The notes: a model not told the origin generated them from the letters alone. Positions 20,695 to 60,153 are shown, counted from the stretch's first letter. The stretch is 60,153 bases of DNA from Microcoleus sp. Aus8_D1 (GCF_036702645.1 NZ_JAUBUO010000016.1:92186-152338), one strand, 5' to 3'. Numbers and translations are program-made.

Positions 20695-20742
20695 ACTGTG
20701 TGTTGAAGCTATCTTATTAACTCTAGTTATCATCTAAAAATA

Positions 20743-22985: not shown

Positions 22986-22991
22986 TTTGAA

Positions 22992-25718: not shown

Positions 25719-25890
25719 AAATTTACCACCACATTGAATTAGTTGTCATCCAAAGGTGAATAATATGATAGGTAATTTTTTTTATGCTACATATCATCAG
25801 AGAACTTTCAACAGGCGGTACAGATAAAATGCTTTATAATTGGCTATTCTGGGATAAATTTGCTCAATTTTTATAGGTTTAGAGAATTAA

Positions 25891-31681: not shown

Positions 31682-31691
31682 TGGTAAGTTT

Positions 31692-32914: not shown

Positions 32915-32948
32915 AGTCAACAATCAACAATCAACAATCAACAATCAA
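32915..32948. repeat. Heptanucleotide STR (CAATCAA)x4.5 ending 3 bp before the epimerase start
   Basis: gtcaacaatcaacaatcaacaatcaacaatcaaccc. Confidence 0.8.
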
Positions 32949-32951
32949 CCC

Positions 32952-33899
32952 ATGAGTAATATTGTTACAGGCGCGGCAGGTTTTATCGGCTCTAACTTAG
33001 TCGAAACTCTTTTAAACCAAGGTGAACAAGTAATCGGTGTTGATGAAGTCAACGATTACTACAATCCCGAATTGAAGAGAAAAAATCTCGCTCATTTTGA
33101 AAAAAATCCGAATTTTCAACTAATTGAGGGCAATATCTTATCTTTGGATTGGAAACCGCTATTAGCAAATGCAGAAGTCATTTACCACCAAGCAGCCCAA
33201 GCAGGAGTCCGTGCTAGTTGGGGAGACGGTTTCCGCAGCTATACGGAACGCAATATCAATGCAACTCAGGTACTCCTAGAAGCCGCAAAAGATGCACCGC
33301 AACTGAAAAAGTTTGTATTGGCTTCGTCTTCGTCGGTGTACGGCAATGCTGAAACTTTTCCTACTTCCGAAACTGCCTGCCCTCAACCAGTTTCTCCCTA
33401 CGGGATTACCAAATTAGCCGCTGAACGTTTGGCTTCGCTTTATCATCACAATTTTGGCGTTCCCGCAACCATGCTGCGGTATTTCACTGTTTACGGGCCT
33501 CGCCAGCGTCCCGATATGGCATTTCACATATTTTTTAAGTCAATTTTGCGCGGCGAAGCGATTTCAATTTACGGAGACGGACAGCAAACGCGAGATTTTA
33601 CATTTATCAGCGATTGCGTTGCCGCTAATTTAGCTGCCGCTAAAGTGCCGGAAGCTGTCGGGGAAATATTTAATATTGGAGGGGGAAGTCGAGTTGCTTT
33701 GGCGGAAGTTATTCAGACTATGGAAAGCATTGTCGATCGCCCGATTCGCATCAATTACCTAGAATCGAGCAAAGGAGATGCGCGAGATACTAGCGCTGAC
33801 GTATCGAAAGCTCAGAAAATCTTGGGATATCAGGCACAGGTTTCTTTGAGGGAAGGGTTGAAGCAAGAATGGGAATGGGTGCAGTCTTTGTACGGCTAG
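32952..33899 (+). CDS. NAD-dependent nucleotide-sugar epimerase/dehydratase (extended SDR)
   Basis: MSNIVTGAAGFIGSNL Rossmann motif and YGITK catalytic YxxxK. The ORF-track extension back to 32835 is a fossil of a GT4 C-terminus. Confidence 0.85.
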   Translation: MSNIVTGAAGFIGSNLVETLLNQGEQVIGVDEVNDYYNPELKRKNLAHFEKNPNFQLIEGNILSLDWKPLLANAEVIYHQAAQAGVRASWGDGFRSYTERNINATQVLLEAAKDAPQLKKFVLASSSSVYGNAETFPTSETACPQPVSPYGITKLAAERLASLYHHNFGVPATMLRYFTVYGPRQRPDMAFHIFFKSILRGEAISIYGDGQQTRDFTFISDCVAANLAAAKVPEAVGEIFNIGGGSRVALAEVIQTMESIVDRPIRINYLESSKGDARDTSADVSKAQKILGYQAQVSLREGLKQEWEWVQSLYG

Positions 33900-33998
33900 A
33901 AGGTGCTGAACCTACTCATCTGCTGAAGTGCTAAGTCAGCAGATGAGGTTATATGCACAGTAAATCTTCGCGAATAATCAACTTAAAATTATCAAGCC

Positions 33999-35063
33999 AT
34001 GAAAATCCAATTTATTGATTTAAGCAGTCCTTTGTGGCTAGAAACTCTGGATAATCTCAGACATGATTTTTATCATTTACCTGGCTATGTGGATTTAGAA
34101 GCAAAAAGAACCGAAGCAACCGCAGAAGCTATTTTGATTGCTGATGATGACAAAATATTCTTTTTGCCTTATTTATTGCGAAAGTGCAATAATTTATTTG
34201 CAGAGACAGTAGAAGTTTTTGATGTTATATCGCCCTATGGCTATCCGGGATTTTTGTTAAATGAAGCCGCAGCTAGCACTCCTGATTTTTTTATCTTGGC
34301 AATCGAAAATTTAACACAGGCCTGGCGCGATCGCAATATTTGTTCGGCTTTTTTACGGCTGCATCCTATTCTCAACAAGGATGTTAATACTTCGATAAAC
34401 AATGACTTGTTTACACTCAATGGAGAAACAGTTTCTGTAGATTTAACACTCGAACGAAGTGAAATATGGAGTCAAACTCGCTCTGAACATCGCAATAAAA
34501 TAAATAGATGCGTCCGCGAAGGTTTTTCGGCTAAAATGGTTCCTATTCAGGAATATATTAATGATTTCAACGCGATTTATGAGGAAACAATGGCTCGGGT
34601 TGGGGCTGCAAAGTTATATTATTTCGGAACTAATTATCTGGTAAAACTCATCGATGTATTAGGAGATAAATTGCATTTATGTATGGTAGAATTGAATGGA
34701 GAAATTACCTGTGGTGGTTTGTTTACTGAGTGCTGCGGCATCGTTCAGTATCATCTGGGTGGTACGAAGTCAAGCTTTTTGAAACAAGCACCCACTAAAC
34801 TAATGTTTGATTATGTTCGATTCTGGGCTAAGGAACGCGGTAATCAAGTTTTCCATCTAGGCGGTGGTTTAGGAGGTTCGCAAGATAGTCTCTACCATTT
34901 CAAAGCAGGTTTCTCTAAGCAAAGACACACTTTTTTCACCCGACGCTTAATTACAGATGAAGAAAAATATCTTCATTTAGTTAACCTACGTGCAAAATAT
35001 CTGAAGATCGAGGTGGAGCATCTACTGAATACCAATTTTTTCCCTGCATATCGCTCTAACTGA
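33999..35063 (+). CDS. FemAB/CelD-like GNAT acyltransferase, intact copy
   Basis: Conserved YHLGGTKSSFLKQAPTKLMFDYVRFWAKERGNQVFHLGGGLGGSQDSLYHFKAGFSKQ block typical of the FemAB-like Acetyltransf_6 family. Confidence 0.7.
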   Translation: MKIQFIDLSSPLWLETLDNLRHDFYHLPGYVDLEAKRTEATAEAILIADDDKIFFLPYLLRKCNNLFAETVEVFDVISPYGYPGFLLNEAAASTPDFFILAIENLTQAWRDRNICSAFLRLHPILNKDVNTSINNDLFTLNGETVSVDLTLERSEIWSQTRSEHRNKINRCVREGFSAKMVPIQEYINDFNAIYEETMARVGAAKLYYFGTNYLVKLIDVLGDKLHLCMVELNGEITCGGLFTECCGIVQYHLGGTKSSFLKQAPTKLMFDYVRFWAKERGNQVFHLGGGLGGSQDSLYHFKAGFSKQRHTFFTRRLITDEEKYLHLVNLRAKYLKIEVEHLLNTNFFPAYRSN

Positions 35064-35076
35064 TTAGGAGAATTGT

Positions 35077-35838
35077 ATGATGGACAACAAGCAAGTTTAC
35101 AGCACAGTAGAATTTGAGAGTTGGGCAGACAAAGAACAATTGATTGAGGAAGAAAAGTATCTAATAGAAACTTATTTAGCTCGAACAGGAAAAATACTCG
35201 AAGCTGGAACAGCAGGAGGAAGAATTTTATTAGAAATGAAACAGATGGGTTTTACATCTCTTGCCGGTTATGATTACGTGCCAGAATTTATTGAGCAGGC
35301 AAAAAAAAGAGATGCGACGCAGAGTATTTCTTTTGAAGTTCAGGATGCAACTAGCTTAAACTACGAAGATGCTAGTTTCGATCAGATAATTTATCTTCAA
35401 CAAATTATTTGTTTGATCGAAAATGATTCAAGCAGATTAAAGGCGATGGAAGAGGCTTATCGTATCCTCAAAATGGGGGGGATTGCATTATTCTCATTCC
35501 TCAGCTTTGAAACGAGAGTTAGAAGTCCCATCTACAAGTCATATTTATCTTATCTCAGCCTGATACGGAAGCTTCGCGGCTCAAATCGTTCTCTTCAATA
35601 TATTCCTTGGCTGAAGCTTGGTGGAAAACCAAACTGGTTATGCCTTCTGGATCGAGGCCCTTATCCTTATTGGTATCAAGTTGCAGAGGCTGAACAGATT
35701 ATAAAAAAAGTTGGTTTTCATGTAGTTGCTGTGGGTTCTAGTTATCAGATCAAACAAGAAGGAAGAATGCCAGAATCAATTGAAACATTAGCGAATGAAC
35801 GCCTACAAGGAATGCTTTACTTTGTCTGTAAAAAATGA
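35077..35838 (+). CDS. Class I SAM-dependent methyltransferase
   Basis: LEAGTAGGRILLEMKQMGF motif I. Confidence 0.7.
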   Translation: MMDNKQVYSTVEFESWADKEQLIEEEKYLIETYLARTGKILEAGTAGGRILLEMKQMGFTSLAGYDYVPEFIEQAKKRDATQSISFEVQDATSLNYEDASFDQIIYLQQIICLIENDSSRLKAMEEAYRILKMGGIALFSFLSFETRVRSPIYKSYLSYLSLIRKLRGSNRSLQYIPWLKLGGKPNWLCLLDRGPYPYWYQVAEAEQIIKKVGFHVVAVGSSYQIKQEGRMPESIETLANERLQGMLYFVCKK

Positions 35839-35855
35839 ATGATGAGCAATGAACC

Positions 35856-36494
35856 ATGAATAATCACCGATCGCCAATCACCAAATTCAGCAGATTAGTT
35901 AAGTGGGTATTAGATAGATTAGTTGCCGCGATCGCCCTACTAATTTTCTCTCCCATCGTTTTAATAGTGGCGATCGCCATTTACATCCGCATGGGTTCTC
36001 CCGTTGTGTTCACACAACCGAGGCCAGGTAAAGATAGCCACGTCTTCAAGTTCTACAAATTTCGCACGATGACGAGCGATCGCGATCGCGAAGGAAACTT
36101 GCTCCCCGACGAACAACGCCTGACTGCGATCGGTCAATTCTTGCGAAAAACCAGTTTGGACGAACTTCCCCAACTGTGGAATGTTCTCAAAGGCGACATG
36201 AGCTTTGTTGGCCCTCGTCCCTTGTTAGTACGATACCTAGAACGCTACAGCCCAGAACAAGCACGCCGCCATGATGTGATGCCCGGAATCACCGGGTGGG
36301 CCCAGGTGAACGGTCGCCGACTTCTAGATGGTAATTGGCCGGAGAAATTTAGGCTCGATGTTTGGTATGTGGATAATTGGAACCTGTGGCTGGATTTGAA
36401 AATACTTTTCCTGACAGTAGGTCAAGTCTTGGGACAAAAAGAAATCAGCCAAGAAGGTCATCTTACAAGTGAAGAGTTTAAAGGTAATGAATGA
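35856..36494 (+). CDS. Undecaprenyl-phosphate sugar phosphotransferase (PglC/WbaP C-terminal type; priming sugar transferase)
   Basis: Single N-terminal TM; KFRTM, DELPQLWNVLKGDMSFVGPRP. Confidence 0.85.
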   Translation: MNNHRSPITKFSRLVKWVLDRLVAAIALLIFSPIVLIVAIAIYIRMGSPVVFTQPRPGKDSHVFKFYKFRTMTSDRDREGNLLPDEQRLTAIGQFLRKTSLDELPQLWNVLKGDMSFVGPRPLLVRYLERYSPEQARRHDVMPGITGWAQVNGRRLLDGNWPEKFRLDVWYVDNWNLWLDLKILFLTVGQVLGQKEISQEGHLTSEEFKGNE

Positions 36495-43423: not shown

Positions 43424-43745
43424 AGGGTGTGTCGCCTGCGAAGAATCCCTAACTAAATATCGAAAATCTCAAAGCTCCGCACCTGTCAACTCGCCCGATC
43501 GCCAATAAAGTCGATCGCCTACAATCAAGTATTCGGGTGTGTCGCCACAAAAAATCCTTAGCCAAACATGAAAAATCTCAAAGCGACGCACCTGTGAACT
43601 CGCCCGATCGCCAATAAAGTCGATCGCCTACAATCAAGTATTCGGGTGTGTCGCCACAGAAAATCCTTAGCCAAACATCGAAAATCTCAAAGCGACGCAC
43701 CTGTCAACTCGCCCGATCGCCACTAAAGTCGATCGCCTACAATCA
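43424..43745. repeat. Tandem array of ~3 copies of a 109-bp unit immediately upstream of the NACHT gene
   Basis: acctgt(c/g)aactcgcccgatcgccaataaagtcgatcgcctacaatcaag... recurs at 43481, 43590 and 43699. ORF 43320..43508 and the 43648 start extension are repeat artefacts. Confidence 0.85.
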
Positions 43746-43785
43746 AACTAACCCGCTTCGAGCAGCGCATCAGGAGAACCGTCAA

Positions 43786-46700
43786 ATGTCAGATCCGATT
43801 ACCTTGGGCTTGCTTTTCACAGTCGCTTGGCAAGGCATACTAGGAACTCAAGTTAATGATGCAGCAAAACATCTCTGTTTGACAGGCATTAAAAAGATAT
43901 CGCGAAACGGTAAAATTGTCAATCACGATTTAGAAAAAGCGCTGAAAACATCTTTCCTGAAAGCTCAGCAGCAAATCGCCTCAGAATGCAAGCAGGAAAT
44001 CGATCCGAAAAATAGCGCTAACCGAGAGAGTTTTAGCTATTCGCTGCAAGACAGGCGGCGCGATTTTGATTGGTTGAAACGAAAGCTCGAAAAGCTCAAA
44101 TTAGATTTAGAACAGGTTAATAAAGAAACAGTCCCGTCTGGGATTCCGATTGAGGGTTTAGATGAGATAGAATTGCTGCTGACTGCCACAGATGAGTTAA
44201 AGCAGAATCGGGTAGCAGCAGTTGAGCAAAAATTGCTGGAAGTTGCCCTCGAAAATTGCGATGTCGCACATTACAAAACGAAGTTAGAGCAAGAGTTGTT
44301 TGCCTTGGTGGCTGCATACTTTGCTCAAGAAATCAAGGAAAATGAAAAGGTTTTTCAGATATTCACCGGGCAAACTTTGACGCGAATTGATACCACAACC
44401 CAAGAGATGTATGCTTGGCTTGAGGAGATTGTGCAAAAGAGCCGCATTGTTTACCAACCGATTGACTGGCGGGCTATTTGTCAGCAGATTTTAGACGAGA
44501 AAGAACAGCAGCGGCTCAGTAGCAATCAGCTAACTTTTGGCGATCGTCAAATTGATGATGTTTATGTGCCGCTGGGATTGGTTGAACGGCACAAAGTGAC
44601 TCAGCGCCGGGAGGATTTGGCGGCGGAGGAAGGTTCGGATTTGTACCGGGAAAAAGAAGTAACTCAAACCTTTGAAAATAAGGAGTTTCTGGAGCAAGTT
44701 TTGCGGGGAGGAAGTAGCCCGAAGAGCAATGGGAAGCGGTTAGCAATTATTGGGGAACCGGGGGCGGGGAAAACTACGCTGTTGCGGCAGATTGCTAATT
44801 GGGTGGCGGAGGAAATTTCCGAGGCGATTGTTATTTGGGTTGCTTTGGCGGATTTGCAGGGGAAAGATTTAGAATCGTATTTATTTGATACTTGGTTGCT
44901 GGCGGCAATTAAGAGGGTTGGGAAAGCTGAGGCGACGGCGGATATTAAAGATGATTTTTTAGCACAGTTTAATGCTGAGCGGGTTTGGTTGGTGTTGGAT
45001 GGCGCGGATGAGATGGCTGCGGGTGATGGGAATCCTTTGGCGGAAATTCAGCGACAAGTTAGAACGGGCGGCTGTGTTCAAAGGGCGCGGATTGTGCTAA
45101 GTTGTCGGCAGAATGTTTGGGATGCGATCGGCTCTGCCTTGGATACTTTTGATACTTATCGTACTCTGGAGTTTTCCTATCCCGAACAGGTGGAAATGTT
45201 TATCGATAAGTGGTTTGGAACCCCCCCTAACCCCCCCTTGCTAAGGGGGGGGACAAGAGAAGAAGGGGATACTTTTGCTCGTGGTTTATCAACGCAGGCG
45301 ACAGGAGAAGGGAACACTCTTACTCCCCCCTTAGCAAGGGGGGCTGGGGGGGTTCTTCCTCCCTCCATCCCAACCCAAAATACAGAAGAAACTCTTACTC
45401 CCCCCTTAGCAAGGGGGGCTGGGGGGGTGCTTTCCCAACAGCTACGGGAAGCATTAGCAGCATCGGGGAAAGAGCGAATTCAAGACTTAGTAAAAAATCC
45501 GCTGAGATGTTCGCTGCTGTGCGGTACTTGGCAGTCGTTGGATGGGGATTTGCCGGATACTAAGGCTAAGCTTTATCGGCGGTTTGTGACTGCTTTGTAT
45601 CAGTGGAAGGAACCGCGCCTGAATTGGAGTCAGCAGCAGGATTTGAATGCGGCTTTGGGGAAATTGGCTCTGGCTGGGATGTTAAATGAAACGGATCGGT
45701 TTCAGTTACGAGAAAGTGTGGGATATCGGGTGATGGGTGCATCGCAGTTTGAGATAGCTTGCCGCTTGGGTTGGCTGAATTTGGTGGCGAGGGATGCGGA
45801 GACGGCGGAAGGGATTTATGCTTTTTATCATCCGACTTTTCAGGAATATTTTGCGGCGTTGGCGGCTGAGGATTGGCATTTTTTCTTGAATCATTTTCCT
45901 GGGAATCCGCAGCATCCTGATGCTCGATATCGGATTTTTGAGAAGCAGTGGAAGGAGGTTATTTTGCTGTGGTTGGGCCGTGAGGAGGTTGGGAAGGAGG
46001 AGAAGGAAGCGTTTATTAAGGCGTTGGTTGAGTTTGAGGATGGGTGTGGTAAATTTTATGGAGATCGGGCATATTTTCTCGCGGCTGCGGGGATTGCTGA
46101 GTTTAAGGATTGCAGTTTTGCTGATGAGATTGTGTCGCAGGTTATTAAGTGGGGGTTTGGTTATTTTGATGAGGAAAAGCAGGAGTGGCAAACATTTATC
46201 GCTCCACTGGCAGAGAGTTCATGGGATATACTGAAGGAGACGGATCGGAAAAGGGCGATCGTAGCTTTAGTTGAGTCAATCCGCAATTCAGGTAATGAAA
46301 AAACCCGGTGGATAGCGGCAAATATATTAGGGGAAATAAGCAAAGATAATCCAGTTGCGATCGAAGCTTTCGTCGAGTTAATCCGTAATTCTCAGGATGA
46401 AAATACCCGGAGGGAGGCGGCAGCTAGCTTAGGAACAATAGGCAAATCTAACCCTGTTGCGATCGAAGCTTTAGTCGAGTTAATCCGTAGTTCTCAGGAT
46501 GAAGATACTTGGAAGCAAGCGGCAAAAAGCTTAGGAGAAATAGGTGAAGATAACCCAGTTGCAATCTCCGGGTTAGTCAAGTTAATTCGCAATTCAGGCG
46601 AACAAAATACCCGGATGACAGCGGCAAATAGCTTAGGAAAAATTGACATAAATAACTTAGTTATACTTGTAAATTTTGATGAACTGAGTGCTACTTCTGA

Positions 46701-47607
46701 AGATGACAATACGATGATTAAATTGGCATATAGCTTGTCAAAATCAGTAACAAACAACTCTCTGATACTCGCAAATTTAGATAATTGCGACGAGCTTATT
46801 GGTACTTCTGAGGATGACAATACCTGGAGAAATGCCCTAAATATCTTAGGAAAAATCGAAAAAGATAACTCAGTTGCGCTCTCAGCTTTAGTCGAGTTAA
46901 TCGGTACTTTTCAGGATAAAAATACCCGGAGGAGAGCGACTGTAAGCCTAGGGCAAATATGCAAAAACAACCCGGATGCGATCGCCGCTTTAGTCGAGTT
47001 AATCAGCAATTCAGGTGATAGACATATCCGTAGTATAGCGGCAGATAGCTTAGGTGAAATCATGAAAGATAAACACTTCGCGATCGCAGTCTCTGGTTTG
47101 AAAGATTGCCTAACTTCCGAAATCTACAAAAACGACTTTACTCTTTATCACAAGTGCTGCCTCGTCATCTCTGACTGTGCCCAAAGCAAGACTTACCCAG
47201 AATTTTATCAAGCATGGCACACTCAACCCACCAATTCCCCAATACCGGACAACCACCCACAAAATCCAGATATCCCCACACTCCTAAAACAACTCAAACC
47301 CACAGATAAAACCTTCCCCGTACCCCTCAACATTCGCGCGTTAGAAGGCGAAACCGATATAAGCCCGATCGCCCAAGAACTCTGTACCCAACTATATCAA
47401 ACAATCTTCCCCGCAGATACAGACATCCCCGCCATCCGCAACGCCCCGGAATTCAAGCGATTAATCCCCCAACTCAAACACCGGCTGCAAAAACCGCACA
47501 TCGCCTTAATCTTGCACTCGTGCCCGTGCGAAAATGCGCTTTCGTCTTTCACCCGCAAACTCGCCGACTCTCACATGGGTATTCATATCGCCTGGATTAG
47601 CGATTAA
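43786..47607 (+). CDS. STAND NTPase: unknown N-terminal domain + NACHT + C-terminal HEAT (PBS-lyase-type) repeats
   Basis: Walker A GEPGAGKTTLLRQIANW and Walker B VWLVLDGADEM. At least 8 HEAT-like repeats (AIEALVELIRSSQDEDTWKQAAKSLGEIG...). Start at Met47 of the track ORF, after the CAGGAGAA RBS. Confidence 0.85.
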   Translation: MSDPITLGLLFTVAWQGILGTQVNDAAKHLCLTGIKKISRNGKIVNHDLEKALKTSFLKAQQQIASECKQEIDPKNSANRESFSYSLQDRRRDFDWLKRKLEKLKLDLEQVNKETVPSGIPIEGLDEIELLLTATDELKQNRVAAVEQKLLEVALENCDVAHYKTKLEQELFALVAAYFAQEIKENEKVFQIFTGQTLTRIDTTTQEMYAWLEEIVQKSRIVYQPIDWRAICQQILDEKEQQRLSSNQLTFGDRQIDDVYVPLGLVERHKVTQRREDLAAEEGSDLYREKEVTQTFENKEFLEQVLRGGSSPKSNGKRLAIIGEPGAGKTTLLRQIANWVAEEISEAIVIWVALADLQGKDLESYLFDTWLLAAIKRVGKAEATADIKDDFLAQFNAERVWLVLDGADEMAAGDGNPLAEIQRQVRTGGCVQRARIVLSCRQNVWDAIGSALDTFDTYRTLEFSYPEQVEMFIDKWFGTPPNPPLLRGGTREEGDTFARGLSTQATGEGNTLTPPLARGAGGVLPPSIPTQNTEETLTPPLARGAGGVLSQQLREALAASGKERIQDLVKNPLRCSLLCGTWQSLDGDLPDTKAKLYRRFVTALYQWKEPRLNWSQQQDLNAALGKLALAGMLNETDRFQLRESVGYRVMGASQFEIACRLGWLNLVARDAETAEGIYAFYHPTFQEYFAALAAEDWHFFLNHFPGNPQHPDARYRIFEKQWKEVILLWLGREEVGKEEKEAFIKALVEFEDGCGKFYGDRAYFLAAAGIAEFKDCSFADEIVSQVIKWGFGYFDEEKQEWQTFIAPLAESSWDILKETDRKRAIVALVESIRNSGNEKTRWIAANILGEISKDNPVAIEAFVELIRNSQDENTRREAAASLGTIGKSNPVAIEALVELIRSSQDEDTWKQAAKSLGEIGEDNPVAISGLVKLIRNSGEQNTRMTAANSLGKIDINNLVILVNFDELSATSEDDNTMIKLAYSLSKSVTNNSLILANLDNCDELIGTSEDDNTWRNALNILGKIEKDNSVALSALVELIGTFQDKNTRRRATVSLGQICKNNPDAIAALVELISNSGDRHIRSIAADSLGEIMKDKHFAIAVSGLKDCLTSEIYKNDFTLYHKCCLVISDCAQSKTYPEFYQAWHTQPTNSPIPDNHPQNPDIPTLLKQLKPTDKTFPVPLNIRALEGETDISPIAQELCTQLYQTIFPADTDIPAIRNAPEFKRLIPQLKHRLQKPHIALILHSCPCENALSSFTRKLADSHMGIHIAWISD
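45232..45425. repeat. Three copies of a near-palindromic mini-element CCCCCCTT(A/G)GC(A/T)AAGGGGGG embedded in frame in the NACHT gene
   Basis: 45232-45252 in one orientation; 45315-45352 and 45388-45425 as a 38-bp direct repeat in the other. They encode PPLLRGG / PPLARGAGG. Confidence 0.75.
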
Positions 47608-47640: not shown

Positions 47641-47666
47641 TTTAACCCCTTAAATAAGGGGTTAAA
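47641..47666. repeat. Island palindrome family, copy 1 (TTTAACCCCTTAAATAAGGGGTTAAA)
   Basis: Perfect 11-bp arms. Related copies at 49302, 51469, 51682, 54661 and 57558. Confidence 0.8.
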
Positions 47667-51400: not shown

Positions 51401-51884
51401 AAGTTTGTCAGGTTAGGTAAAGTTAATATGCTAATGAGTCCTTTGGGTAGGGGGACTCATTTTTATTGTTTATCCCCTTATTTAAGGGGTTAAAGTTAAA
51501 TAATAGATTATCAATTATCCTACATATTTTTACTCTCACCAAGTCGAAAATCACTACTCTAGAGTCTGCCAAGCATAGCGATATTTGTACTTTGTGTTAT
51601 GGCCTAAAATCAAAACCGGGTTTTTCACCCCAAAACGTCATTTTAATTTTTTATAAATGGGGGTTTTGGGAGTGTTTATGATTTATCCCCTTATTTAAGG
51701 GGTTAAAGTTAAAGTGCAAGATACTAAGCTAGATTTTAGAGGGTGTGGTGTCTAGATTATGCCTAGAAAGTGACAAGCCACAATTAAGCAATCTCAACAA
51801 CTAGGATAACGTAAATAGGTTAAATGACTAGAAAGTATCTAGAAATCAAGGATAGGATGGCTGAAAGCATTGGTAAATGGTAAC
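51401..51884. repeat. Left arm of the long inverted repeat flanking ppk; carries a 195-bp insertion (51496..51690) bounded by duplicated palindromes
   Basis: Reverse complement of 54487..54753 aligns at >95% identity apart from the insertion. Confidence 0.85.
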
Positions 51885-52305: not shown

Positions 52306-54486
52306 ATGTCCAAGCAAAAAAAGACCCCAGCCAAAACCTACACCGAAATCAACCTCAGCGACCCGCAATACTACTTCAACCGAGAACAAAGCTGGCTAGA
52401 ATTCAACAACCGCGTGCTCCACGAAGCCCTAGACCCCCGCACGCCCCTCCTAGAAAGACTCAAATTTCTCGCTATTTTTAGCTCAAACTTAGACGAATAC
52501 TTCATGGTGCGAGTAGCCGCACTCAAACAGCAAGTAGAAGCAAAAGTCAGTAAATTGACCTCCGACGGCCGCACGCCCCAAGAACAGCTAGATGCCATCA
52601 ACAAGCGGCTTTTGCCGATGGTTACTCAGCAACACTCGTATTTTGAGCAAACTCTGCGGCCCAAATTAGCAGCAAACGGCATCCACATTCTCGACTACAT
52701 TGACCTCAATCAAGAACAGCGAAATTACTTGCATCGCTACTTCAAAGAACAAGTATTTCCTGTGCTCACACCCCTAGCAGTTGACCCCAGTCATCCCTTC
52801 CCATTTCTATCCAATCTCAGTCTTAATTTAGCAGTAGTTGTCAGAGACCCCGACACCCGCGAAGAACTATTTGCGCGCGTCAAAGTACCGCAGGTTCTGC
52901 CCAGATTTTTGCCCTTACCGGAGGACTTGCAGTGGCAGCAGAGGGGCAAATCTCCTGTGTGGACGGGGGTACCTCTCGAACAGGTAATCGCCCACAATTT
53001 AGAGGCTTTGTTTCCGGGGATGGACATTCAGGAATATCACCCGTTTCGGATTACTCGCAATTCCGATTTGACTGTGGAGGAAGATGAGGCAGATGATTTG
53101 CTGCTGGCCATTGAACAGGAACTCCGCAAACGCCGATTTACAGGTTCTGCGGTGCGCCTGGAAATTCCAGCGATTATGCCGCCTGCACTGCGAGATATGT
53201 TGATGGACGAGTTGGATCTCGGCGAGCAGGATGTTTACGCCGTGGAGGGGCTGCTAGGCCTCAAGGATTTGATGTCTTTTGTCGGGTTGCCGGTACCGGA
53301 ACTCAAAGATCCGCCTTGGACTCCGGTGGTGCCGCCCCGCTTGCGGAACTCGGAACCGCCCAGGATGGTAGGTAAATCGATGTTGGATGTTGAGGAGGGT
53401 GAGGATATTTTCACGGCCATCCGCCAGGGCGATTTGATGCTGCACCATCCCTATCACTCGTTTGCAGCCACTGTCCAGCGGTTTATTACTGAGGCGGCGA
53501 ACGATCGCTCGGTGTTAGCGATTAAGATGACTTTATACCGCACTTCTGGTGATTCGCCGATCGTCAGTTCTTTAATTCAAGCTGCGGAAAACGGCAAGCA
53601 AGTAGCCGTTTTAGTCGAGCTCAAAGCCCGGTTTGACGAAGAAAATAACATTAATTGGGCGCGCAAGTTAGAACAAGCGGGCGTGCACGTTGTCTACGGT
53701 TTGGTGGGACTCAAAACCCACACCAAGGTGGTGATGGTAGTCCGGCGCGAGGACAGTTGCATTCGCCGCTACGTCCACATCGGCACGGGAAATTACAACC
53801 CGAAAACTGCTGGACTGTATACGGATGTGGGTTTGTTGAGTTGTCGCGAAGATTTGGGTGCGGATTTGACGGACTTGTTTAATTATTTAACCGGTTATTC
53901 CCGACAGCTATCTTATCGTAAATTGTTGGTGGCGCCTGTCAATATGCGCGAGCGTTTTTTAGCATTAATCCGCCGCGAAGCCGACTTCTGCCGCTTACAG
54001 GCCGAAGGCGGCACCGGTAGCTGCGGCCGGATTGTCGCTAAAATGAATGCTTTAGTTGACCCTCAAATTATTGTTGCTTTGTACGAAGCTTCCCAAGCGG
54101 GTGTTAAAATTGATTTGATTATCCGGGGGATTTGTTGTTTGCGTCCGGGCGTTGAGGGTGTTAGCGAAAATATCAAAGTTATCAGTATTATCGGCCGCTT
54201 TTTAGAGCATTCTCGGATGTTTTATTTTTTCAACGGCGGCAACGAAGAGGTGTATATTGGTTCTGCTGACTGGATGCAGCGCAATCTCACAAGGCGGGTT
54301 GAGGCGATCGTGCAAGTGGAAGATCCGACTATAGTGATGGAGTTGCAAGAAATTTTGGGTGTGATGTTGGCGGACAACCGCCAAGCTTGGGATTTGCAGT
54401 CTGGGGGACACTACTCTCAGCGACGCCCGCCTGCTAATAACCCGGAGGTGAGCTCTCAGCAAATTTTGATGGATATGGTAAATTAA
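52306..54486 (+). CDS. ppk: Polyphosphate kinase 1
   Basis: DPQYYFNREQSWLEFNNRVL N-terminus and conserved PPK1 histidine regions. GC-rich, unlike the flanking DNA. The stop codon sits at the inner edge of the right inverted repeat. Confidence 0.92.
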   Translation: MSKQKKTPAKTYTEINLSDPQYYFNREQSWLEFNNRVLHEALDPRTPLLERLKFLAIFSSNLDEYFMVRVAALKQQVEAKVSKLTSDGRTPQEQLDAINKRLLPMVTQQHSYFEQTLRPKLAANGIHILDYIDLNQEQRNYLHRYFKEQVFPVLTPLAVDPSHPFPFLSNLSLNLAVVVRDPDTREELFARVKVPQVLPRFLPLPEDLQWQQRGKSPVWTGVPLEQVIAHNLEALFPGMDIQEYHPFRITRNSDLTVEEDEADDLLLAIEQELRKRRFTGSAVRLEIPAIMPPALRDMLMDELDLGEQDVYAVEGLLGLKDLMSFVGLPVPELKDPPWTPVVPPRLRNSEPPRMVGKSMLDVEEGEDIFTAIRQGDLMLHHPYHSFAATVQRFITEAANDRSVLAIKMTLYRTSGDSPIVSSLIQAAENGKQVAVLVELKARFDEENNINWARKLEQAGVHVVYGLVGLKTHTKVVMVVRREDSCIRRYVHIGTGNYNPKTAGLYTDVGLLSCREDLGADLTDLFNYLTGYSRQLSYRKLLVAPVNMRERFLALIRREADFCRLQAEGGTGSCGRIVAKMNALVDPQIIVALYEASQAGVKIDLIIRGICCLRPGVEGVSENIKVISIIGRFLEHSRMFYFFNGGNEEVYIGSADWMQRNLTRRVEAIVQVEDPTIVMELQEILGVMLADNRQAWDLQSGGHYSQRRPPANNPEVSSQQILMDMVN

Positions 54487-54753
54487 CCATTTACCAATGC
54501 TTTCAGCCATCCTATCCTTGATTTCTAGATACATTCTAGTCATTTAACCTATTTACGTCATCCTAGTTGTTGAGTTTGCTTAATTGTGGCTTGTCACTTT
54601 CTAGGCATAATCTAGACACCACACCCTCTAAAATCTAGCTTAGTATCTTGTACTTTAATTTTACCCCCTTAAATAAGGGGATAAACCATAAAAATGAGTC
54701 CCCCTACCCAAAGGACTCATTAGCATATTAACTTTACCTAACCCGACAAACTT
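54487..54753. repeat. Right arm of the long inverted repeat flanking ppk
   Basis: Reverse complement matches 51401..51495 plus 51691..51884. Includes palindrome copy 54661-54686 and hairpin ATGAGTCC...GGACTCAT. Confidence 0.85.
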
Positions 54754-54758
54754 GATAC

Positions 54759-54953
54759 TTAGAGCGGCATAGCCTCATTGTTGCCGATACCAAGATTTAA
54801 CGCTTCAACCTGACTTTTTAACCCCGCGATGTCTGATTCGGTTAAATCCGATTCATTATCCATTTTCAGTTCGTTCTGAATAGCCGCAAGTTGACTCTTA
54901 TGGTTAATTAGAATCTCTAAGATAGCCTTTACAACAGCGAGCAAGGTTTTCAT
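54759..54953 (-). CDS. Hypothetical small acidic protein (64 aa), last gene of the minus-strand operon
   Basis: ORF in the operon context. Confidence 0.3.
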   Translation of the reverse strand: MKTLLAVVKAILEILINHKSQLAAIQNELKMDNESDLTESDIAGLKSQVEALNLGIGNNEAMPL

Positions 54954-55005
54954 GCGATTTATGTCCTATTTGCGGTTCTAAAGTTATTGTAATAGTTGTG
55001 TCCGG

Positions 55006-55209
55006 TTAATTCAACCTTTTAGCTTTGGCAATTTTAAGTTTCTTAACCAAGTCCCGTACAAATGTTTTCATATCTCCTTCAATTTCCAGTCCCATATTGC
55101 GCCGCTCTAAAAGCATATCCAATTCCCGTAGACGTACTAACTCTTCTATTTTTGACTTGACCGCTTTACTGATGTACTTTTTAGTACCTTTATCACCTTT
55201 TTTCGCCAT
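55006..55209 (-). CDS. Hypothetical small Lys-rich basic protein (67 aa), possibly nucleic-acid binding
   Basis: MAKKGDKGTKKYISKAVKSKIEELVRLRELD... Start lies 2 nt from the upstream gene end. Confidence 0.35.
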   Translation of the reverse strand: MAKKGDKGTKKYISKAVKSKIEELVRLRELDMLLERRNMGLEIEGDMKTFVRDLVKKLKIAKAKRLN

Positions 55210-55210
55210 A

Positions 55211-57547
55211 CTACACTCCTCTTAAGGCTTTAGATATTGAGATATTATTGGGGTCAAATTTCCACTTAACAATAGGAATGTTGCTAGGTTGCAACATTTT
55301 ATTTAATACGGCCTCAACTTCATTATCCGTCTTAGCTTTGCTAATATTAATTTTTTTAGGCTCGGATTTTTGAAAACCTTTATGAGATTCATGGATAGTA
55401 AAGCTCACGGGTACATCTTCAGTGTCCAAAATAGGTTCATATCCAATAGCATCTATGATGTATTCAACTTTTCTGCTTGTCTCGGCTAACGCGCTCATTA
55501 ATTGCACTAATTGCATAATTGCACTAATCTCAAACTTCTGACTGCTGTCGCCATTGGACATACTTTCCGCAACCATCTCATATATTTGCGATGCCCACGC
55601 CGTCGCATTGACATTTTGCCACTCGTTGCCTAGTGGCTTGCTAATTGGATTAATGATTAATCCATTGGCAAGCATCCTAAATAATGCTTGCGTCACGGCG
55701 TAATAATCCTCACATTCTTGATTTCCCTTGCCTCCTGCTACCATAAAGGCTTTCGCAACTTTAAATTTATCTTTTTTCATCTTGGCAATACCAAGATATT
55801 TGTATATCTCTTTAATCTCTTTACAACAATCCATAGGTTTTATCTTTGTAGGTTTATTAGGTAAGCGGGGTGGCTTGTATTTAGGTGTTGGTACTGGAAT
55901 ACAAGTGCTATTAGCAATTGTAACCTTAATTGTGTGGGTATATTCATAAAATGCCCACACTCCACTAGGTTCAAAATGTCCGCCAGTGCTATGATGTAGA
56001 GTTGAAAGGTAATCATACATTGCTTGCTCATCACCTTTCAACTCTACAAGACCACCACCTATACTACGACGTTCAATCAAACCCCACCCACTGACTGTAT
56101 CAGGGCGAGGGTCTACAGGAATATTAACCGTTGTAGACTTGCTTCTTTTGTAATTGTATGTACCAGGATTAGGTTCCACAAGATTCAGGTGCAAAAAGTC
56201 TGTCTTAGAAACAACTGTACCCGTAAGAATACCATTGCTATCATATGTACCGTTTACAATTGAAGAGAAGTTATCCACAACATCTCCAAATTGATAAGGA
56301 GGATTACCCGAATAATCTCCTTTCCAGTCATAATGAATTTTTTCGTAATTGTAAATAAGTTTACAAAAACTTTTTGTACCTATAGGATAGATTGGTGCGG
56401 GTTCGATTGGTGGTCTAGGTGGTTTAGGGAATGGACTCCCTGTTGGAGTCGGAGTTGGCGTAGGCGTAGGCGTAGGCGTTGGAGTAGGTGTATCACGCGG
56501 CCATGGTGATGGTCTAGGTGTTTTGGGACGTGGGTTAGGTTTAGGAGGAGGAGCGGGTTTAGGTGTTTTTGGCGTAGGAGTTTTAGGTATAGCTGTTGGT
56601 TTAGGTGGTTTAGGTGGTTTAGGTGGTTTAGGTGGAGTTGAAGGCTTCTTTAAATTAATTGGCGATGTATCGATTGGTTTTTTAGGGTTTATAGGTGATT
56701 TTTTCTTTAAATCAATTACAGGTTTCTTTTTAAGGTCAATTGGTGATTTTTTCTTTAAATCAATTACAGGTTTCTTTTTAAGATTTGTAGGTGTGCGTTT
56801 TTTCTCGAAACCTGTTGGTTTCTTTTTGGTGTCAAGCTGTGGTTTTTTGTCTGTTTTGGGTTGATCCGGTTTAGGTGTTTTGGGACGTGGGTTAGGTTTA
56901 GGTGTATCTTTAGTAGGTGTATCGGATTTAGGTGTTTTTGGTTGTGGTTTTTTACGTGCAGATTTATTATCACTTGGTGCATTAGGTCTAGGTGGTCTAG
57001 GTGATTTTGGGGAACGTTCAAAGTCTAATCTTGGTAGCTTTAAAGTGCCTTCATTTTGTGGGTCTCCCTTGTCTCTACTAAAAGTGGTACAGGCCTCTAT
57101 AATTCCAATACCAAAACAAGTTTTTAAGGTTTTACTACCACCCGCATCTCGTGCTAATTCAATACCAATACCAAAACCTTGAATCGAAATTGACGCATCG
57201 CCCAGACTACTACCACTTATACCTCCGCCAAAACCCAAAAAACTACCCGCAATGTTACCACCTATGGAATTTATAGTTCCATTGTCATTAAATTGAACAC
57301 TTGCACCTATTTCTGCACCTAATTTATTTTTAGCAGAACCTATGCCTGCGCTAAGTCCTGCACCTTTATTTTCTGGGTCAATATAGCCCGTTACGCGGTT
57401 ATTCCTAATAAACGCATCAATTCCTATTTCTACACTTGCATCAGTACGAATACCGCCTAAAGAGCCTATCGTGCGCTCTCCTTCTAGTGAAAGCTTTACG
57501 GCTCCATTACTACTTTGTTGTTGGCGTGGACTTCTTGGTGTTCTCAT
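55211..57547 (-). CDS. Large ORFan protein: Gly-rich N-terminal domain, ~230-aa Pro/Thr/Lys-rich low-complexity linker with 10-aa repeats (IDLKKKPV), ~400-aa C-terminal domain
   Basis: Clean 778-aa ORF. (TP)n and (PKP)n tracts. Palindrome copy 57558-57583 immediately upstream of its start codon. Confidence 0.6.
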   Translation of the reverse strand: MRTPRSPRQQQSSNGAVKLSLEGERTIGSLGGIRTDASVEIGIDAFIRNNRVTGYIDPENKGAGLSAGIGSAKNKLGAEIGASVQFNDNGTINSIGGNIAGSFLGFGGGISGSSLGDASISIQGFGIGIELARDAGGSKTLKTCFGIGIIEACTTFSRDKGDPQNEGTLKLPRLDFERSPKSPRPPRPNAPSDNKSARKKPQPKTPKSDTPTKDTPKPNPRPKTPKPDQPKTDKKPQLDTKKKPTGFEKKRTPTNLKKKPVIDLKKKSPIDLKKKPVIDLKKKSPINPKKPIDTSPINLKKPSTPPKPPKPPKPPKPTAIPKTPTPKTPKPAPPPKPNPRPKTPRPSPWPRDTPTPTPTPTPTPTPTPTGSPFPKPPRPPIEPAPIYPIGTKSFCKLIYNYEKIHYDWKGDYSGNPPYQFGDVVDNFSSIVNGTYDSNGILTGTVVSKTDFLHLNLVEPNPGTYNYKRSKSTTVNIPVDPRPDTVSGWGLIERRSIGGGLVELKGDEQAMYDYLSTLHHSTGGHFEPSGVWAFYEYTHTIKVTIANSTCIPVPTPKYKPPRLPNKPTKIKPMDCCKEIKEIYKYLGIAKMKKDKFKVAKAFMVAGGKGNQECEDYYAVTQALFRMLANGLIINPISKPLGNEWQNVNATAWASQIYEMVAESMSNGDSSQKFEISAIMQLVQLMSALAETSRKVEYIIDAIGYEPILDTEDVPVSFTIHESHKGFQKSEPKKINISKAKTDNEVEAVLNKMLQPSNIPIVKWKFDPNNISISKALRGV

Positions 57548-57657
57548 ATTTTTATTGTTTACCCCCCTATTTATGGGGGTAAAATGGTTAATTATTAGAA
57601 AATTTATTTAGTTCTATTTTAAAGTAACGTAATGATGCTTTACTTTTATTGATTAAA

Positions 57658-58734
57658 TTAAGCTACGTATTCAATAACTACATAAAAAGGTTTAGAAAGA
57701 ATACCCGCCGAGTTGGCAGATTCGTTAGTAATATAAATATTTGTGGCATCTCTCGCAATAATAGTATTAAAATTAAACTGCTTTCCACATAAAGGAACTA
57801 AAGAATCAGTTGCGTAAAAAACAACTCCACACGCGCTTATTACTTTAGTTGAATTTATTCCGTGGGCTACAAATATTGATGCGCCTTCAGTCGCTGCTGT
57901 AGTACCACTGATTAATTTCTTTTTTATAGCAACATTATCGCCTAATGAGGTAAAACCAAACAGGCGGAAATTTCCACTCGAATCAACACTAAAAATGTTA
58001 GCGACAATAGCGGAATAATTATCTGAAAGCCTCCTCATTAATAAATTTCCCGAGCTTGTCAACCCACAGTCAATCACTTTTTGATTAGTTGGGGCTTGAG
58101 CAGCCGAAAGAAACCAATACCCACCGCCACCGATACCAGTAGCAAACAATCCGGCTTGATTTTCTTTACTTACATCTGCGAGACTTTCTACTCCTTGTGA
58201 GCGAATAGATTGTTTGCTCGTCAACGACAAAGTAAAAATTTTAATGCCGTTGATAACTTGGTTAAGCGAGGCACTAACAAATTCTAAAGGATTGTGCCAC
58301 GTTCTGTCACCTTTTAGTAAATAACTTTCTTCACCTGCGGAGGCTCCCTTAACCAGCCCATTAGTACCGCCTGCAATTGGCGTAGCAGCGCCGAACAAAT
58401 TTAATAGATTTTCTAATGCAGCCAGCCTATTTGTTAATTCTGTTAAATCATTTTTTTTTGAGATTTCTATGGTGCAACCAAAATCAATAGAAATAAAATC
58501 CGTATCCCATAGCAAACCATCACCATAATCGACTAGCTGTATTGCTATTGCATCATTTTTTTCCATTATGCGGGTTGGATATCCTGTATAGCTGCGTAAA
58601 TCTAAATAATCTTTACGTCCCCTATTTACCAAAATTATCTCGGCTGCTTCATTCCAATCACCCGTATTGTTCTTTCGTTTTAATATTTTTAAGCCTATTT
58701 TATTTGAATTTGCTTCTGATTTATTCAACAACAA
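57658..58734 (-). CDS. Hypothetical beta-rich, Gly/Ser/Thr/Asn-rich protein (358 aa); tail-fibre or adhesin-like composition
   Basis: Clean ORF in the operon; no recognisable motif. Confidence 0.5.
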   Translation of the reverse strand: MLLNKSEANSNKIGLKILKRKNNTGDWNEAAEIILVNRGRKDYLDLRSYTGYPTRIMEKNDAIAIQLVDYGDGLLWDTDFISIDFGCTIEISKKNDLTELTNRLAALENLLNLFGAATPIAGGTNGLVKGASAGEESYLLKGDRTWHNPLEFVSASLNQVINGIKIFTLSLTSKQSIRSQGVESLADVSKENQAGLFATGIGGGGYWFLSAAQAPTNQKVIDCGLTSSGNLLMRRLSDNYSAIVANIFSVDSSGNFRLFGFTSLGDNVAIKKKLISGTTAATEGASIFVAHGINSTKVISACGVVFYATDSLVPLCGKQFNFNTIIARDATNIYITNESANSAGILSKPFYVVIEYVA

Positions 58735-58740
58735 AACTTT

Positions 58741-58947
58741 TTATGTGTCAGATTCATCGCCTTCAAATGTTGGAAATTGAGCAATATTAAAACTCCCTAA
58801 ATCCCTACTCGCATTGGCTGTATCTAAATAAATTGCTATACGCTCATCCGCATCAAATGTCATGTCGCGAAAATGAATGATTTCTAAGATCGTACCCGCT
58901 ACATAACTAGGTACAAATTTGGTTCCAAAAGTACGTGTAATTGTCAT
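58741..58947 (-). CDS. Hypothetical 68-aa protein
   Basis: Packed between operon genes with 6-10-nt spacers. Confidence 0.4.
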   Translation of the reverse strand: MTITRTFGTKFVPSYVAGTILEIIHFRDMTFDADERIAIYLDTANASRDLGSFNIAQFPTFEGDESDT

Positions 58948-58957
58948 TGGTTTCCTC

Positions 58958-59920
58958 TTAAGTTAGTAAAATAAAATCAGACAAGCCGTCACCAAAACCT
59001 TCGATAAGCCCTTCTAAGAGGTTGCCAAATGCAGGGTCTTTTTCTGTAATCTTTTCAACCTTATCCTCTACTTTTTGTGCAATACTCCAAGTTTGGCTTT
59101 CTTGTAAGCCCCAATTTTTAATCTTTTCATCAATAACTTTAATACCAGTGCGGACATTTTGTCGCGCATATTTTCGCAATTCTAAGTAACCTAACTTACC
59201 CGCTAGCGTTGTCGCGTATCTCATAAAAATGTTGGCAAGCTGCGAAAGCTCTTCTACTAATTCTTCCTCAATATTACTACCGTCTTGTTTCGCCGTAATT
59301 ATTAATGCGGCGGTAGCGGTAATTGAAATATTTAATTTAGGATTAGCTTTCCCTCCTCCTAGTGCAAGGCCTGCTAACATTCTACCTGTGCTTTCACCTA
59401 AATTATTAAGAAAACCTAGATAAGAACCATTCAATTCTGCGAGTATCGCAGCATCAGACTTTGCCCAATCGATATTATATACCGTATTACCAGTAGATAC
59501 TATTGCCTGTTGCAAAGTTGGTAGCATTAAACTTACCGCAACCCCACCTATTTTTATAGCTCCTAACGATGTCCACATAGCAGAAATACCCGATGATGCT
59601 ACAGCAAATAAGCCACTTGCAGACCCAATAAACCAACCTGCTACCGCTACCGCACCCGCGCCTGCAAGCGCACTTTTGGGGTCATCTCGAAACCATTGTT
59701 TGAATATGTCCCAATCACCCCTACCAATAGCGCTAAGAAGTTCTTTCCCGCCCTCAAACATTCGTTTACCTAAATCAATAGCAGATGAAATTCCCGATTT
59801 TATCGCACTCCATACTGCACCTGCTGCATCTTGTATCCATTTGTCAGGAGTGACACCTTCCAAAGAAAAGGCGAGTGCACTGGATTCTAGAGTTACGCCT
59901 GAGTTTGTATTTGTAACCAT
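58958..59920 (-). CDS. Hypothetical protein with a hydrophobic Gly/Ala-rich central segment (probable 2-3 TM helices, GxxxG-rich)
   Basis: AGAGAVAVAGWFIGSASGLFAVASSGISAMWTSLGAIKIGGVAVSLMLP. Confidence 0.5.
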   Translation of the reverse strand: MVTNTNSGVTLESSALAFSLEGVTPDKWIQDAAGAVWSAIKSGISSAIDLGKRMFEGGKELLSAIGRGDWDIFKQWFRDDPKSALAGAGAVAVAGWFIGSASGLFAVASSGISAMWTSLGAIKIGGVAVSLMLPTLQQAIVSTGNTVYNIDWAKSDAAILAELNGSYLGFLNNLGESTGRMLAGLALGGGKANPKLNISITATAALIITAKQDGSNIEEELVEELSQLANIFMRYATTLAGKLGYLELRKYARQNVRTGIKVIDEKIKNWGLQESQTWSIAQKVEDKVEKITEKDPAFGNLLEGLIEGFGDGLSDFILLT

Positions 59921-59924
59921 AATT

Positions 59925-60153
59925 TTAAGTGATTAACCATTCTGTAGCATTCTCTGAAATTGTACCGTTTGTTCCTAGTAAAGTAGCATAAGGTAATGAT
60001 AAATTACCAGAAAAAATACAAAGCGAGTAATCAAAACTCATTTGTACCCCAGTTACTCTTTGAGGATTTTTAGTAACGTTTTTTTGCCAAACTAATGCGT
60101 AACTAATTGCGTCAATAAAATATTGAGCTAACGTAGTCCCTTTAATAGTCCCT
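59925..60153 (-). CDS. Partial CDS (C-terminal end in window); first visible gene of the minus-strand operon
   Basis: Minus-strand frame open from the window edge to a TAA complementary to 59925-59927 (...GTNGTISENATEWLIT*). Confidence 0.4.
   Translation of the reverse strand, partial: GTIKGTTLAQYFIDAISYALVWQKNVTKNPQRVTGVQMSFDYSLCIFSGNLSLPYATLLGTNGTISENATEWLIT

Follow-up and report, generated by a model that had tools for sequence, protein, structure and literature searches.

Which system is encoded by the closely packed minus-strand genes that fill positions 54,759 to 60,153 of a 60,153-nt stretch of DNA from Microcoleus sp. Aus8_D1 (GCF_036702645.1, NZ_JAUBUO010000016.1:92186-152338), referred to below as the window? 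The initial annotation of this locus described a seven-gene 'ORFan' operon and offered a phage tail-fibre or host-recognition module, a secreted-adhesin system or something new as its possible identity. The interpretation favoured here, with modest confidence, is that the operon is the end nearest to the host gene ppk of an integrated virus-like element, and constitutes its particle and host-entry module. Two parts of this picture are well supported, namely that the operon belongs to a site-specific integrative element and that one of its genes, the fibre gene, encodes a phage-type receptor-binding protein.

To ascertain the gene content of the operon, the minus-strand open reading frames (ORFs) were located in the window DNA, and every one of those listed initially was present on the given strand at the given coordinates. 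The compositional description was also borne out, with a Gly-rich N-terminal part and a Pro/Lys/Thr linker in the 778-residue product (p778), GxxxG motifs in the 320-residue product (p320) and charged small proteins. Corrections were required to the gene count, the spacers and the lower boundary. The operon consists of six genes and not seven, as the 68-aa and 358-aa ORFs form a single, nonsense-interrupted fibre gene. The spacers, described as 2–10 nt throughout, are 4, 10, 6 (the in-frame stop region), 110, 1 and 52 nt along the operon. The unit does not start at 54,759, given that a strong terminator (54,721–54,693) and a terminal arm extend it to the ppk stop at 54,486.

The genes are genuine, with homologues of p320 forming 110 clusters that are virtually all from Microcoleus, gene order kept across the approximately 25 loci retrieved, and the order p165, p320, fibre, p778 and small genes invariant among related loci. 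Compared with the orthologs in locus L002, the closest relative of the window element, p320 has a ratio of nonsynonymous to synonymous substitution rates (dN/dS) of 0.06, the p165 fragment one of 0.07, the fibre 0.20 and p778 0.24, and the operon genes are under purifying selection over this whole range of 0.06–0.24. The designation 'ORFan' is therefore apt in so far as the genes are unannotated, but they belong to families conserved across Microcoleus and, distantly, in other cyanobacteria.

The element begins at the stop codon of the host ppk gene (54,486), whose product is identical to a protein annotated as PPK1 in unclassified Microcoleus. Two complete Microcoleus genomes carry the element, CP181291.1 (locus L004) and that of M. 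anatoxicus, CP120853.1 (locus L006), and in the latter the ppk/element junction is identical to that of the window. Homology between the window and L006 runs through ppk up to window position 54,588. The next 100–130 nt or so can also be aligned with the L004 island at its inner end, where ppk is lacking, and this segment past the ppk stop therefore belongs to the element. The resulting terminal arm of approximately 130 nt is common to the window, L004 and L006 elements, sits in L004 just within a 16-bp direct repeat that brackets the island, and in the window its region contains repeated TTCTAG(A) motifs at 54,524, 54,535, 54,600 and 54,611. Past the residues ...ILMDM, the C-terminus of PPK1 reads VMN, VIN or AMN in most strains, VN in the window and VF in L006. 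This is compatible with, and only suggestive of, a scheme in which the element may supply the last codons of ppk.

A common attachment (att) core was considered, since the ppk 3' end (GATATGGTAAATTAA) resembles the L004 direct repeat (GATATGTTGGAATAAG), and was rejected because, relative to the element, these sequences point in opposite directions. A 27-nt palindrome near the element end was also discarded as an att site, being a dispersed intergenic hairpin with five copies in the window, where none would be expected, and with further copies inside related elements. This 25–27-nt palindrome, TTA[A/C]CCCCTTAAATAAGGGGATAAA, is found both in host intergenic regions and inside elements, including L004 (about 9947–9973, 3055–3082 and 5848–5874), and is probably a repetitive extragenic palindrome (REP)-like hairpin or terminator element of Microcoleus. 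One copy follows the intrinsic terminator that closes the operon, and the tandem-hairpin fold of the two has a z-score of -4.9.

The window holds approximately one third of the element, and its full extent is apparent from the complete genomes. In L004 the island spans 15.8 kb between the direct repeats at positions 229 and 15,991 and interrupts a SOUL-family gene, the coding sequence of which reads ...NPLFQHI before the island and LFQHISNNQIAMTTPVE... after it. The island starts with a Phage_integrase gene, three small ORFs and a Dam-type methylase, continues with a 424-aa protein containing Walker A and Walker B motifs and several unknown genes, and has in its right part p324, p196, p123, p70, p165, p320, the fibre, p778 and two small genes. 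The L006 element is similar in size and adjoins ppk as in the window, with an integrase at its far end and a putative P4-family primase at its near end; the primase domain (1.4e-21, under the curated cut-off) belongs to a gene outside the window. The best PDB matches of the 424-aa P-loop protein, which sits in a replication-side gene cluster likewise outside the window, are weak, to a 'pathogenicity island protein' (8tch, E 0.024) and to MCM helicases. A standard set of tail proteins with a full prophage upstream, which the initial annotation had named as the finding that would overturn its view, was not seen; what the relatives show is this island of about 15 kb with integrase, Dam and helicase genes. 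Since terminase, portal and capsid genes are absent upstream in the relatives, 'something new' may still hold for most of the module.

The same core occurs on other backbones. A second type carries a serine recombinase instead of the tyrosine integrase (L001 and L017). A distant version of the core is carried by pMIC7113.08, a circular plasmid of 20.8 kb from Allocoleopsis franciscana PCC 7113, and distant metagenomic elements encode D5_N/DUF5906 primases, tyrosine or XisA/C-type recombinases, helix-turn-helix (HTH) regulators and a C39-like peptidase. In the distant elements p778, a gene of about 90 aa, p320 and p324 are contiguous. Circular episomal contigs were considered among the related loci and rejected, with terminal overlap in none of the 31.

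Several further observations were made on the related elements. In L025 (991–2571) a 526-aa protein fuses a p320-like N-terminal half with a p324-like C-terminal half, a Rosetta-stone link from which the two proteins can be taken to act together. The segment containing p324 and p196/p123/p70 lies on opposite strands relative to p165 in L001 (338–3197) and L003 on the one hand and L004 (7173–9445) on the other, which might reflect inversion by the serine-recombinase-type elements or may go back to an old rearrangement. Just past the module end, L002 (7681–9531) encodes a group II intron reverse transcriptase (RVT_N, RVT_1, GIIM), as does L007 at the same position. At the edges of the structural-like block are candidate cell-wall enzymes, a weak Tlde1 match (L,D-transpeptidase effector) in L003 (6081–6509) and a Peptidase_C39_2 in L030 (14,960–15,553); they could be lysis or entry enzymes.

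The proposal of a phage tail-fibre or host-recognition module proved correct for one gene only, the interrupted fibre gene, through matches to PHROG families, Peptidase_S74 and solved phage fibres. The two ORFs of this gene share a reading frame, and the sole break between them is a TAA at 58,741–58,743. All homologs are uninterrupted single genes encoding 380–605 aa, with Glu or Gly at the position of the window stop. In the alignment with the closest homolog, which reads SDTEKVLLLNKSE, the window reads SDT*KVLLLNKSE, a change of Glu to stop. Two NCBI assemblies of unclassified Microcoleus list the 68-aa piece as a protein in its own right, and the stop is thus not an error confined to one sequence. 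It breaks the fibre after the first third of the anchor domain, and the remaining operon genes are intact. The TAA could represent a recent inactivation, or alternatively a site of readthrough or of re-initiation at a TTG located 6 nt downstream.

Across the family, the fibre starts with a conserved domain of roughly 200 aa, of which the 68-aa piece of the window is part, continues with a coiled-coil neck and ends in one of at least four alternative C-terminal modules. PHROG tail-fibre families were matched by 11–12 of the 26 members with E values to 1e-15, and a head-decoration PHROG family, corresponding to the window head type, by eight of the 26 (best E 2e-15). Peptidase_S74 (PF13884) is present in six homologs and a tail-needle motif in two, those of L004 and L025. 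The family profile matched the PDB entries 9d93 (E 9e-6) and 6v8i (E 4e-3). The window fibre has no Pfam match, to the C-terminal Peptidase_S74 chaperone domain or otherwise, and carries a decoration-like head instead. A PorB match of the 358-aa ORF, below the curated Pfam cut-off and confined to a helical or low-complexity region, was dismissed as spurious.

Structure prediction followed by Foldseek, as recommended in the initial annotation, yielded weak matches for a fibre homolog and no fold match for the C-terminal region of p778. An AlphaFold2 (AF2) model was built on P0111, the closest homolog with the window head type, and consisted of a confident alpha/beta anchor domain, a helix and a confident beta head. 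Foldseek of this model returned weak similarities (E ~1e-3) to TNF/C1q-like trimers, SH1 capsid proteins and the trimeric KHP40 phage cement protein. The output does not name the matched domain, and the similarity is assigned to the head because of the PHROG decoration match. A constant anchor joined to exchangeable heads is the hallmark of receptor-binding proteins. The anchor domain had no counterpart in IMG/VR and the window fibre no match in 50,697 phage genomes.

Downstream of the fibre, p778 belongs to a family of 71 clusters with a regular architecture throughout. The N-terminal part has a basic N-terminus followed by Gly-rich, beta-like repeats that end in C-x8-C; in the window, residues 1–180 contain 17.8% Gly. 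The spacer varies from 0 to 224 residues across the family, with 212 in the window, and its DNA consists of tandem repeats with periods of 6, 9 and 48; residues 181–395 contain 31.6% Pro, 20.9% Lys and 12.6% Thr. An invariant CC pair lies 203–206 residues from the C-terminus within the Microcoleus clade, and the C-domain is the most conserved part of the protein. No transmembrane helix was predicted in p778. The two cysteine motifs, C144...C153 (57,089–57,118) and C574-C575 (55,823–55,828), flank the spacer and the middle domain, and might form disulfides or a metal site tying the ends of the protein together. A Pfam match to Glutaminase (E 2e-3, 17.7 bits where the cut-off is 27, in a helical or low-complexity region) was rejected as spurious. 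A toxin-immunity reading of p778 with the small genes was also set aside, given that the C-domain is conserved and that the small genes do not neighbour p778 in distant relatives.

The remaining operon products are p320, p165 and two small proteins. In p320, the most conserved protein of the core, two Gly/Ala-rich hydrophobic segments (residues 88–109 and 118–136; 59,513–59,659) and seven GxxxG motifs are combined with an amphipathic N-terminal region and a soluble C-terminal half. The p165 protein is an invariant core member with homologs in all related loci, including the plasmid pMIC7113.08; the 75-aa fragment encoded in the window found nothing when used as a database query. p67 is a member of a p85/p67 family present in L002, L004, L006 and L017, shares 88% identity with its L002 ortholog and, being very basic, may bind DNA. 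An ORF of about 60–67 aa occupies the position of p64 in L002, L004 and L006, a correspondence established by position; p64 had no family matches in Pfam, PHROG or NCBIfam, and its coiled-coil Pfam matches, below curated cut-offs in helical or low-complexity sequence, were judged spurious, as was an NCBIfam PedR match on the same grounds.

None of the operon products possesses a signal-like hydrophobic N-terminal segment, which fits cytoplasmic assembly. The suggestion of a secreted-adhesin system consequently found no support, with neither such a segment nor a transporter partner. No sequence relatives of p165, p320, p778 or p324 were found in Pfam, PHROGs, NCBIfam, the PDB, IMG/VR or the 50,697 phage genomes, and for p165, p324 and the backbone proteins nothing emerged beyond the weak MCM- and pathogenicity-island-like signal of the P-loop protein. 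Paralogy among the core families was sought with hhalign, and none was seen at a probability of 20% or above.

Taken together, these features can be arranged into a proposed mechanism. An element of about 13–16 kb, specific to Microcoleus and related filamentous cyanobacteria, would insert by site-specific recombination at the 3' end of ppk. p165 and p320 would be conserved structural components, with p320 membrane-active through its Gly/Ala-rich hydrophobic hairpin, possibly together with p324. The fibre would be trimeric and held on the particle by its N-terminal domain, and recombination with the fibres of tailed phages would swap its head. p778 would act as an envelope-spanning or penetration protein bridging the thick cyanobacterial envelope, its Gly-rich N-domain probably inserting into the membrane and its C-domain staying with the particle. 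The Pro/Lys-rich rod between these end domains would shift in length by expansion of its tandem repeats. The two small charged proteins and the terminator would finish the operon. The nonsense mutation in the fibre means that the window element is probably impaired in adsorption.

Integration, conservation, the identity of the fibre and the domain architecture are demonstrated; that the block as a whole builds a particle we infer from the following. A fibre needs an anchoring partner; the orphan genes are tightly co-conserved with the fibre; the element is an autonomous circle in one strain; and the proteins are without secretion signals. A number of points weigh in the opposite direction. Terminase, portal, capsid and packaging ATPase were not recognised in any complete element using Pfam, PHROGs, NCBIfam or PDB sequence profiles, where the screen for terminase, portal and HK97-fold capsid covered the L004 and L006 islands, the plasmid L027 and the elements L028 and L030. 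Relatives are absent from IMG/VR and from the 50,697 phage genomes. The roles of p165, p320 and p778 are hypotheses drawn from composition and architecture, and the predicted structure of the p778 C-region, of moderate confidence, has no fold relatives. The integrase end of the window's own element falls outside the window. Finally, the broken fibre in the window and the split genes in some metagenomic copies indicate that part of the family may be decaying.

The principal rival to a virus-like element with its own particle is a phage satellite, which would carry its own integration and replication genes together with a fibre and accessory virion proteins, lack a capsid, and be packaged by a helper cyanophage that its own fibre retargets. 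The size of about 15 kb is as expected for such an element, as are the backbone of integrase, putative P4-family primase and P-loop protein with its weak 8tch and MCM similarities, the absence of capsid, terminase and portal genes, and fibre heads common to tailed phages that would fit attachment to a tailed helper. However, neither terS, capsid-size redirection nor Sid/Psu/Cpm/Ppi-like genes were detected in PHROG and Pfam searches of the elements, and the approximately 9 kb of conserved orphan 'structural-like' genes is far above the usual virion share of a satellite. The same block is also found on the autonomous circular replicon of 20.8 kb. With the fibre anchor missing from IMG/VR and the window fibre from the phage collection, there is no sign of a helper that would offer a docking site to match, and a satellite is considered unlikely.

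Two further explanations were weighed alongside. A non-viral integrative plasmid or island could encode a cell-surface or contact-dependent apparatus for adhesion, transfer or bacteriocin-like killing, with the fibre as adhesin, p778 as envelope-spanning strut and p320 as membrane anchor. The greater part of the block has no relationship to virus proteins, one of the relatives bears a plasmid annotation, the TonB-like Pro-rich spacer of p778 and the hydrophobic hairpin of p320 would suit the purpose, and the two small charged genes after p778 loosely resemble a toxin-immunity layout. This is nevertheless quite unlikely given that signal-like N-termini and components of secretion, pilus or conjugation systems were not detected, and that the fibre family, with its S74 chaperone and tail-needle modules, is of a type characteristic of phage virions. 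Moreover, polymorphic toxins vary at the C-terminus, where p778 is most conserved, and the genes that come after p778 in distant relatives are p320 and p324, not small immunity-like ones. The other possibility, that the operon is the decayed tail-fibre region of a conventional tailed prophage, would account for the nonsense-interrupted fibre, the split genes of some metagenomic copies and the presence of just one element end in the window. It is very improbable and largely refuted, as more than 100 protein clusters, under strong purifying selection, show this set of genes in this order, the island ends are 15.8 kb apart and marked by 16-bp direct repeats in one complete genome, no other tailed-phage gene is present in the islands of both complete genomes, and the core proteins are unmatched in the 50,697 phage genomes.

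Going beyond the virus-like element favoured here, a bolder proposal is that the family is a so far unrecognised lineage of temperate viruses, or of virus-like transfer agents, in filamentous cyanobacteria. The particle would consist of p165, p320, p324, p778, p196 and p123, unrelated in sequence to known capsid, packaging and tail machinery, with only the fibre heads shared with tailed phages, and p778 would be a new, repeat-tuned, envelope-spanning entry protein. This proposal is tentative and, on present evidence, somewhat doubtful.

Microcoleus dominates desert biocrusts and toxic river mats, and few of its viruses and mobile elements are known. The element family is widespread: p320 proteins from Microcoleus genomes and metagenomes form over 100 clusters, and distant versions of the element turn up in other cyanobacteria as well as on a plasmid. 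The family has been missed by standard virus detection and is absent from IMG/VR, and nearly all of its proteins are conserved without known relatives. If particles are formed, they would represent a new virion architecture and a gene-transfer vehicle, and the swappable heads would report host-receptor specificity. If the element is a satellite, it would be the first example in filamentous cyanobacteria and unusual in carrying its own fibre. The defined att site at ppk could serve Microcoleus genetics as an integration tool.

The coordinates of the features are collected in the table below. Elsewhere in the window, and unrelated to the operon, a 1319-aa ORF (43,648–47,607; GC skew 0.28) contains PBS-lyase-type HEAT repeats at about residues 865–1000. 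Long runs of genes on the same strand at 18,000–26,000 and 30,000–36,000 have a G+C content of 0.37–0.39 against 0.44–0.51 elsewhere, and might be a polysaccharide-type or horizontally acquired cluster.

Table. Features of the operon, the element end and the adjoining host gene, in window coordinates.
Feature	Position	Strand	Remarks
Host ppk	52306-54486	+	polyphosphate kinase 1, 726 aa; stop codon adjoins element
Terminal arm	54487-54610	.	conserved, att-proximal; three-way alignment with L004 and L006 island ends
Dispersed palindrome copies	47642-47666, 51469-51493, 51682-51706, 54661-54685, 57558-57582	.	all copies in the window
Palindrome copy TTACCCCCTTAAATAAGGGGATAAA	54661-54685	.	25 nt; second hairpin past terminator
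Palindrome copy	57558-57582	.	within the 110-nt fibre-p778 gap; 3 mismatches
Terminator	54693-54721	-	intrinsic; 12-bp stem, then T-run; closes operon; fold confirmed
p64	54759-54953	-	64 aa; acidic, net charge -4; hydrophobic N-terminal helix
p67	55006-55209	-	67 aa; 21% Lys, net charge +10; 1 nt downstream of p778
p778	55211-57547	-	778 aa
p778 Gly-rich N-domain	residues 1-168; 57044-57547	-	ends in C144-x8-C153
p778 Pro/Lys/Thr spacer	residues 169-396; 56360-57043	-	built of DNA tandem repeats
p778 middle domain	residues 397-543	-	variable, beta-rich
p778 second Pro stretch with invariant CC	C574-C575; 55823-55828	-	
p778 C-domain	residues 576-778; 55214-55822	-	conserved, alpha/beta
Fibre	57658-58947	-	358-aa (57658-58734, TTG start) and 68-aa (58741-58947) ORFs
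Fibre N-terminal anchor domain	58378-58947	-	from alignment and model
Fibre C-terminal jelly-roll head	about 57664-57993	-	decoration-like
p320	58958-59920	-	320 aa; most conserved core protein
p165	59925-60153	-	C-terminal 75 codons of a gene of ~165 aa, cut at window end

Comparison with known systems places the fibre closest to the modular fibres of tailed phages. Examples of these are the 80alpha upper fibre gp68 (6v8i), the 'tail collar fibers gp4' (9d93), fibres with an S74 intramolecular chaperone and the P22-type tail needle, and the likeness lies in a fibre repeat region of the LNTLxELAxALxNDxNFA type, in S74 domains, in a C-terminal tail-needle motif and in the combination of anchor and swappable head. 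In contrast to these phages, the anchor of about 200 aa is specific to the element and no tail or baseplate genes accompany the fibre, while the window head is a decoration-like jelly-roll in a gene interrupted by a stop. The order of tail tube, chaperones expressed through a G/GT frameshift, tape measure and baseplate is absent from the operon, where p165 is followed by p320 and then by the fibre at spacings of 4–10 nt with no chaperone pair, and neither p165 nor p320 matched a tube or tape-measure PHROG. As for adhesins delivered by two-partner secretion, autotransporters or type I secretion systems (T1SS), no transporter or beta-barrel Pfam match was present in the operon or in related elements.

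Proline- or glycine-rich spacers bridge layers of the cell envelope in TonB and in the g3p protein of filamentous phages, and provide a functional analogy for p778, in which end domains are likewise separated by a low-complexity Pro/Lys/Thr rod of variable length. p778 differs from both in having no sequence or fold relationship to them and no transmembrane helix, and in the cysteines C144/C153 and C574/C575 that flank its spacer. For the Inoviridae, a Zot/pI-type ATPase was sought in the complete elements and no Zot match was obtained with Pfam or PHROG.

The vertex spikes of tailless membrane-containing phages, of which PRD1 P5 is the type, consist of an N-terminal anchor, a shaft and a TNF-like trimeric head. 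The fibre resembles them in its anchor, its coiled-coil or shaft and its putative trimeric jelly-roll head (weak Foldseek similarity, ~1e-3), and the small size of the element together with a proposed membrane-active p320 extends the likeness. Searches at the sequence level gave no double-jelly-roll capsid match for p165, p324, p196 or p320. The element differs from the Tectiviridae, Corticoviridae and Autolykiviridae in that an FtsK/HerA-type packaging ATPase was not found, the only P-loop protein being weakly similar to MCM and Staphylococcus aureus pathogenicity island (SaPI) proteins. In the sequence available for the serine-recombinase-type elements there is also no packaging ATPase.

With P4, the phage-inducible chromosomal islands (PICI, including SaPI) and the tycheposons, the L004 and L006 relatives share an island size of about 15 kb, a tyrosine integrase, site-specific insertion (with direct repeats in L004) and the lack of capsid and terminase genes; a putative P4-family primase or a P-loop protein weakly similar to helicases is also present. 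The satellites used for comparison included the Prochlorococcus tycheposons (bioRxiv 10.1101/2020.12.28.424599) and marine satellites (PMC9618062). The elements differ from phage satellites in their large orphan structural-like block with its own fibre, in the absence of satellite hallmark genes, and in integrating into protein-coding genes (the ppk 3' end and a SOUL-family gene) rather than tRNA genes, of which the window contains none. The single paper on Microcoleus phages that the literature search yielded describes a siphovirus prophage of about 70 kb and myoviruses, distinct from the present element, and the element family is undescribed in the searchable literature. As an integrative virus-like element the family is a known kind of thing, and its gene content beyond the fibre is new.

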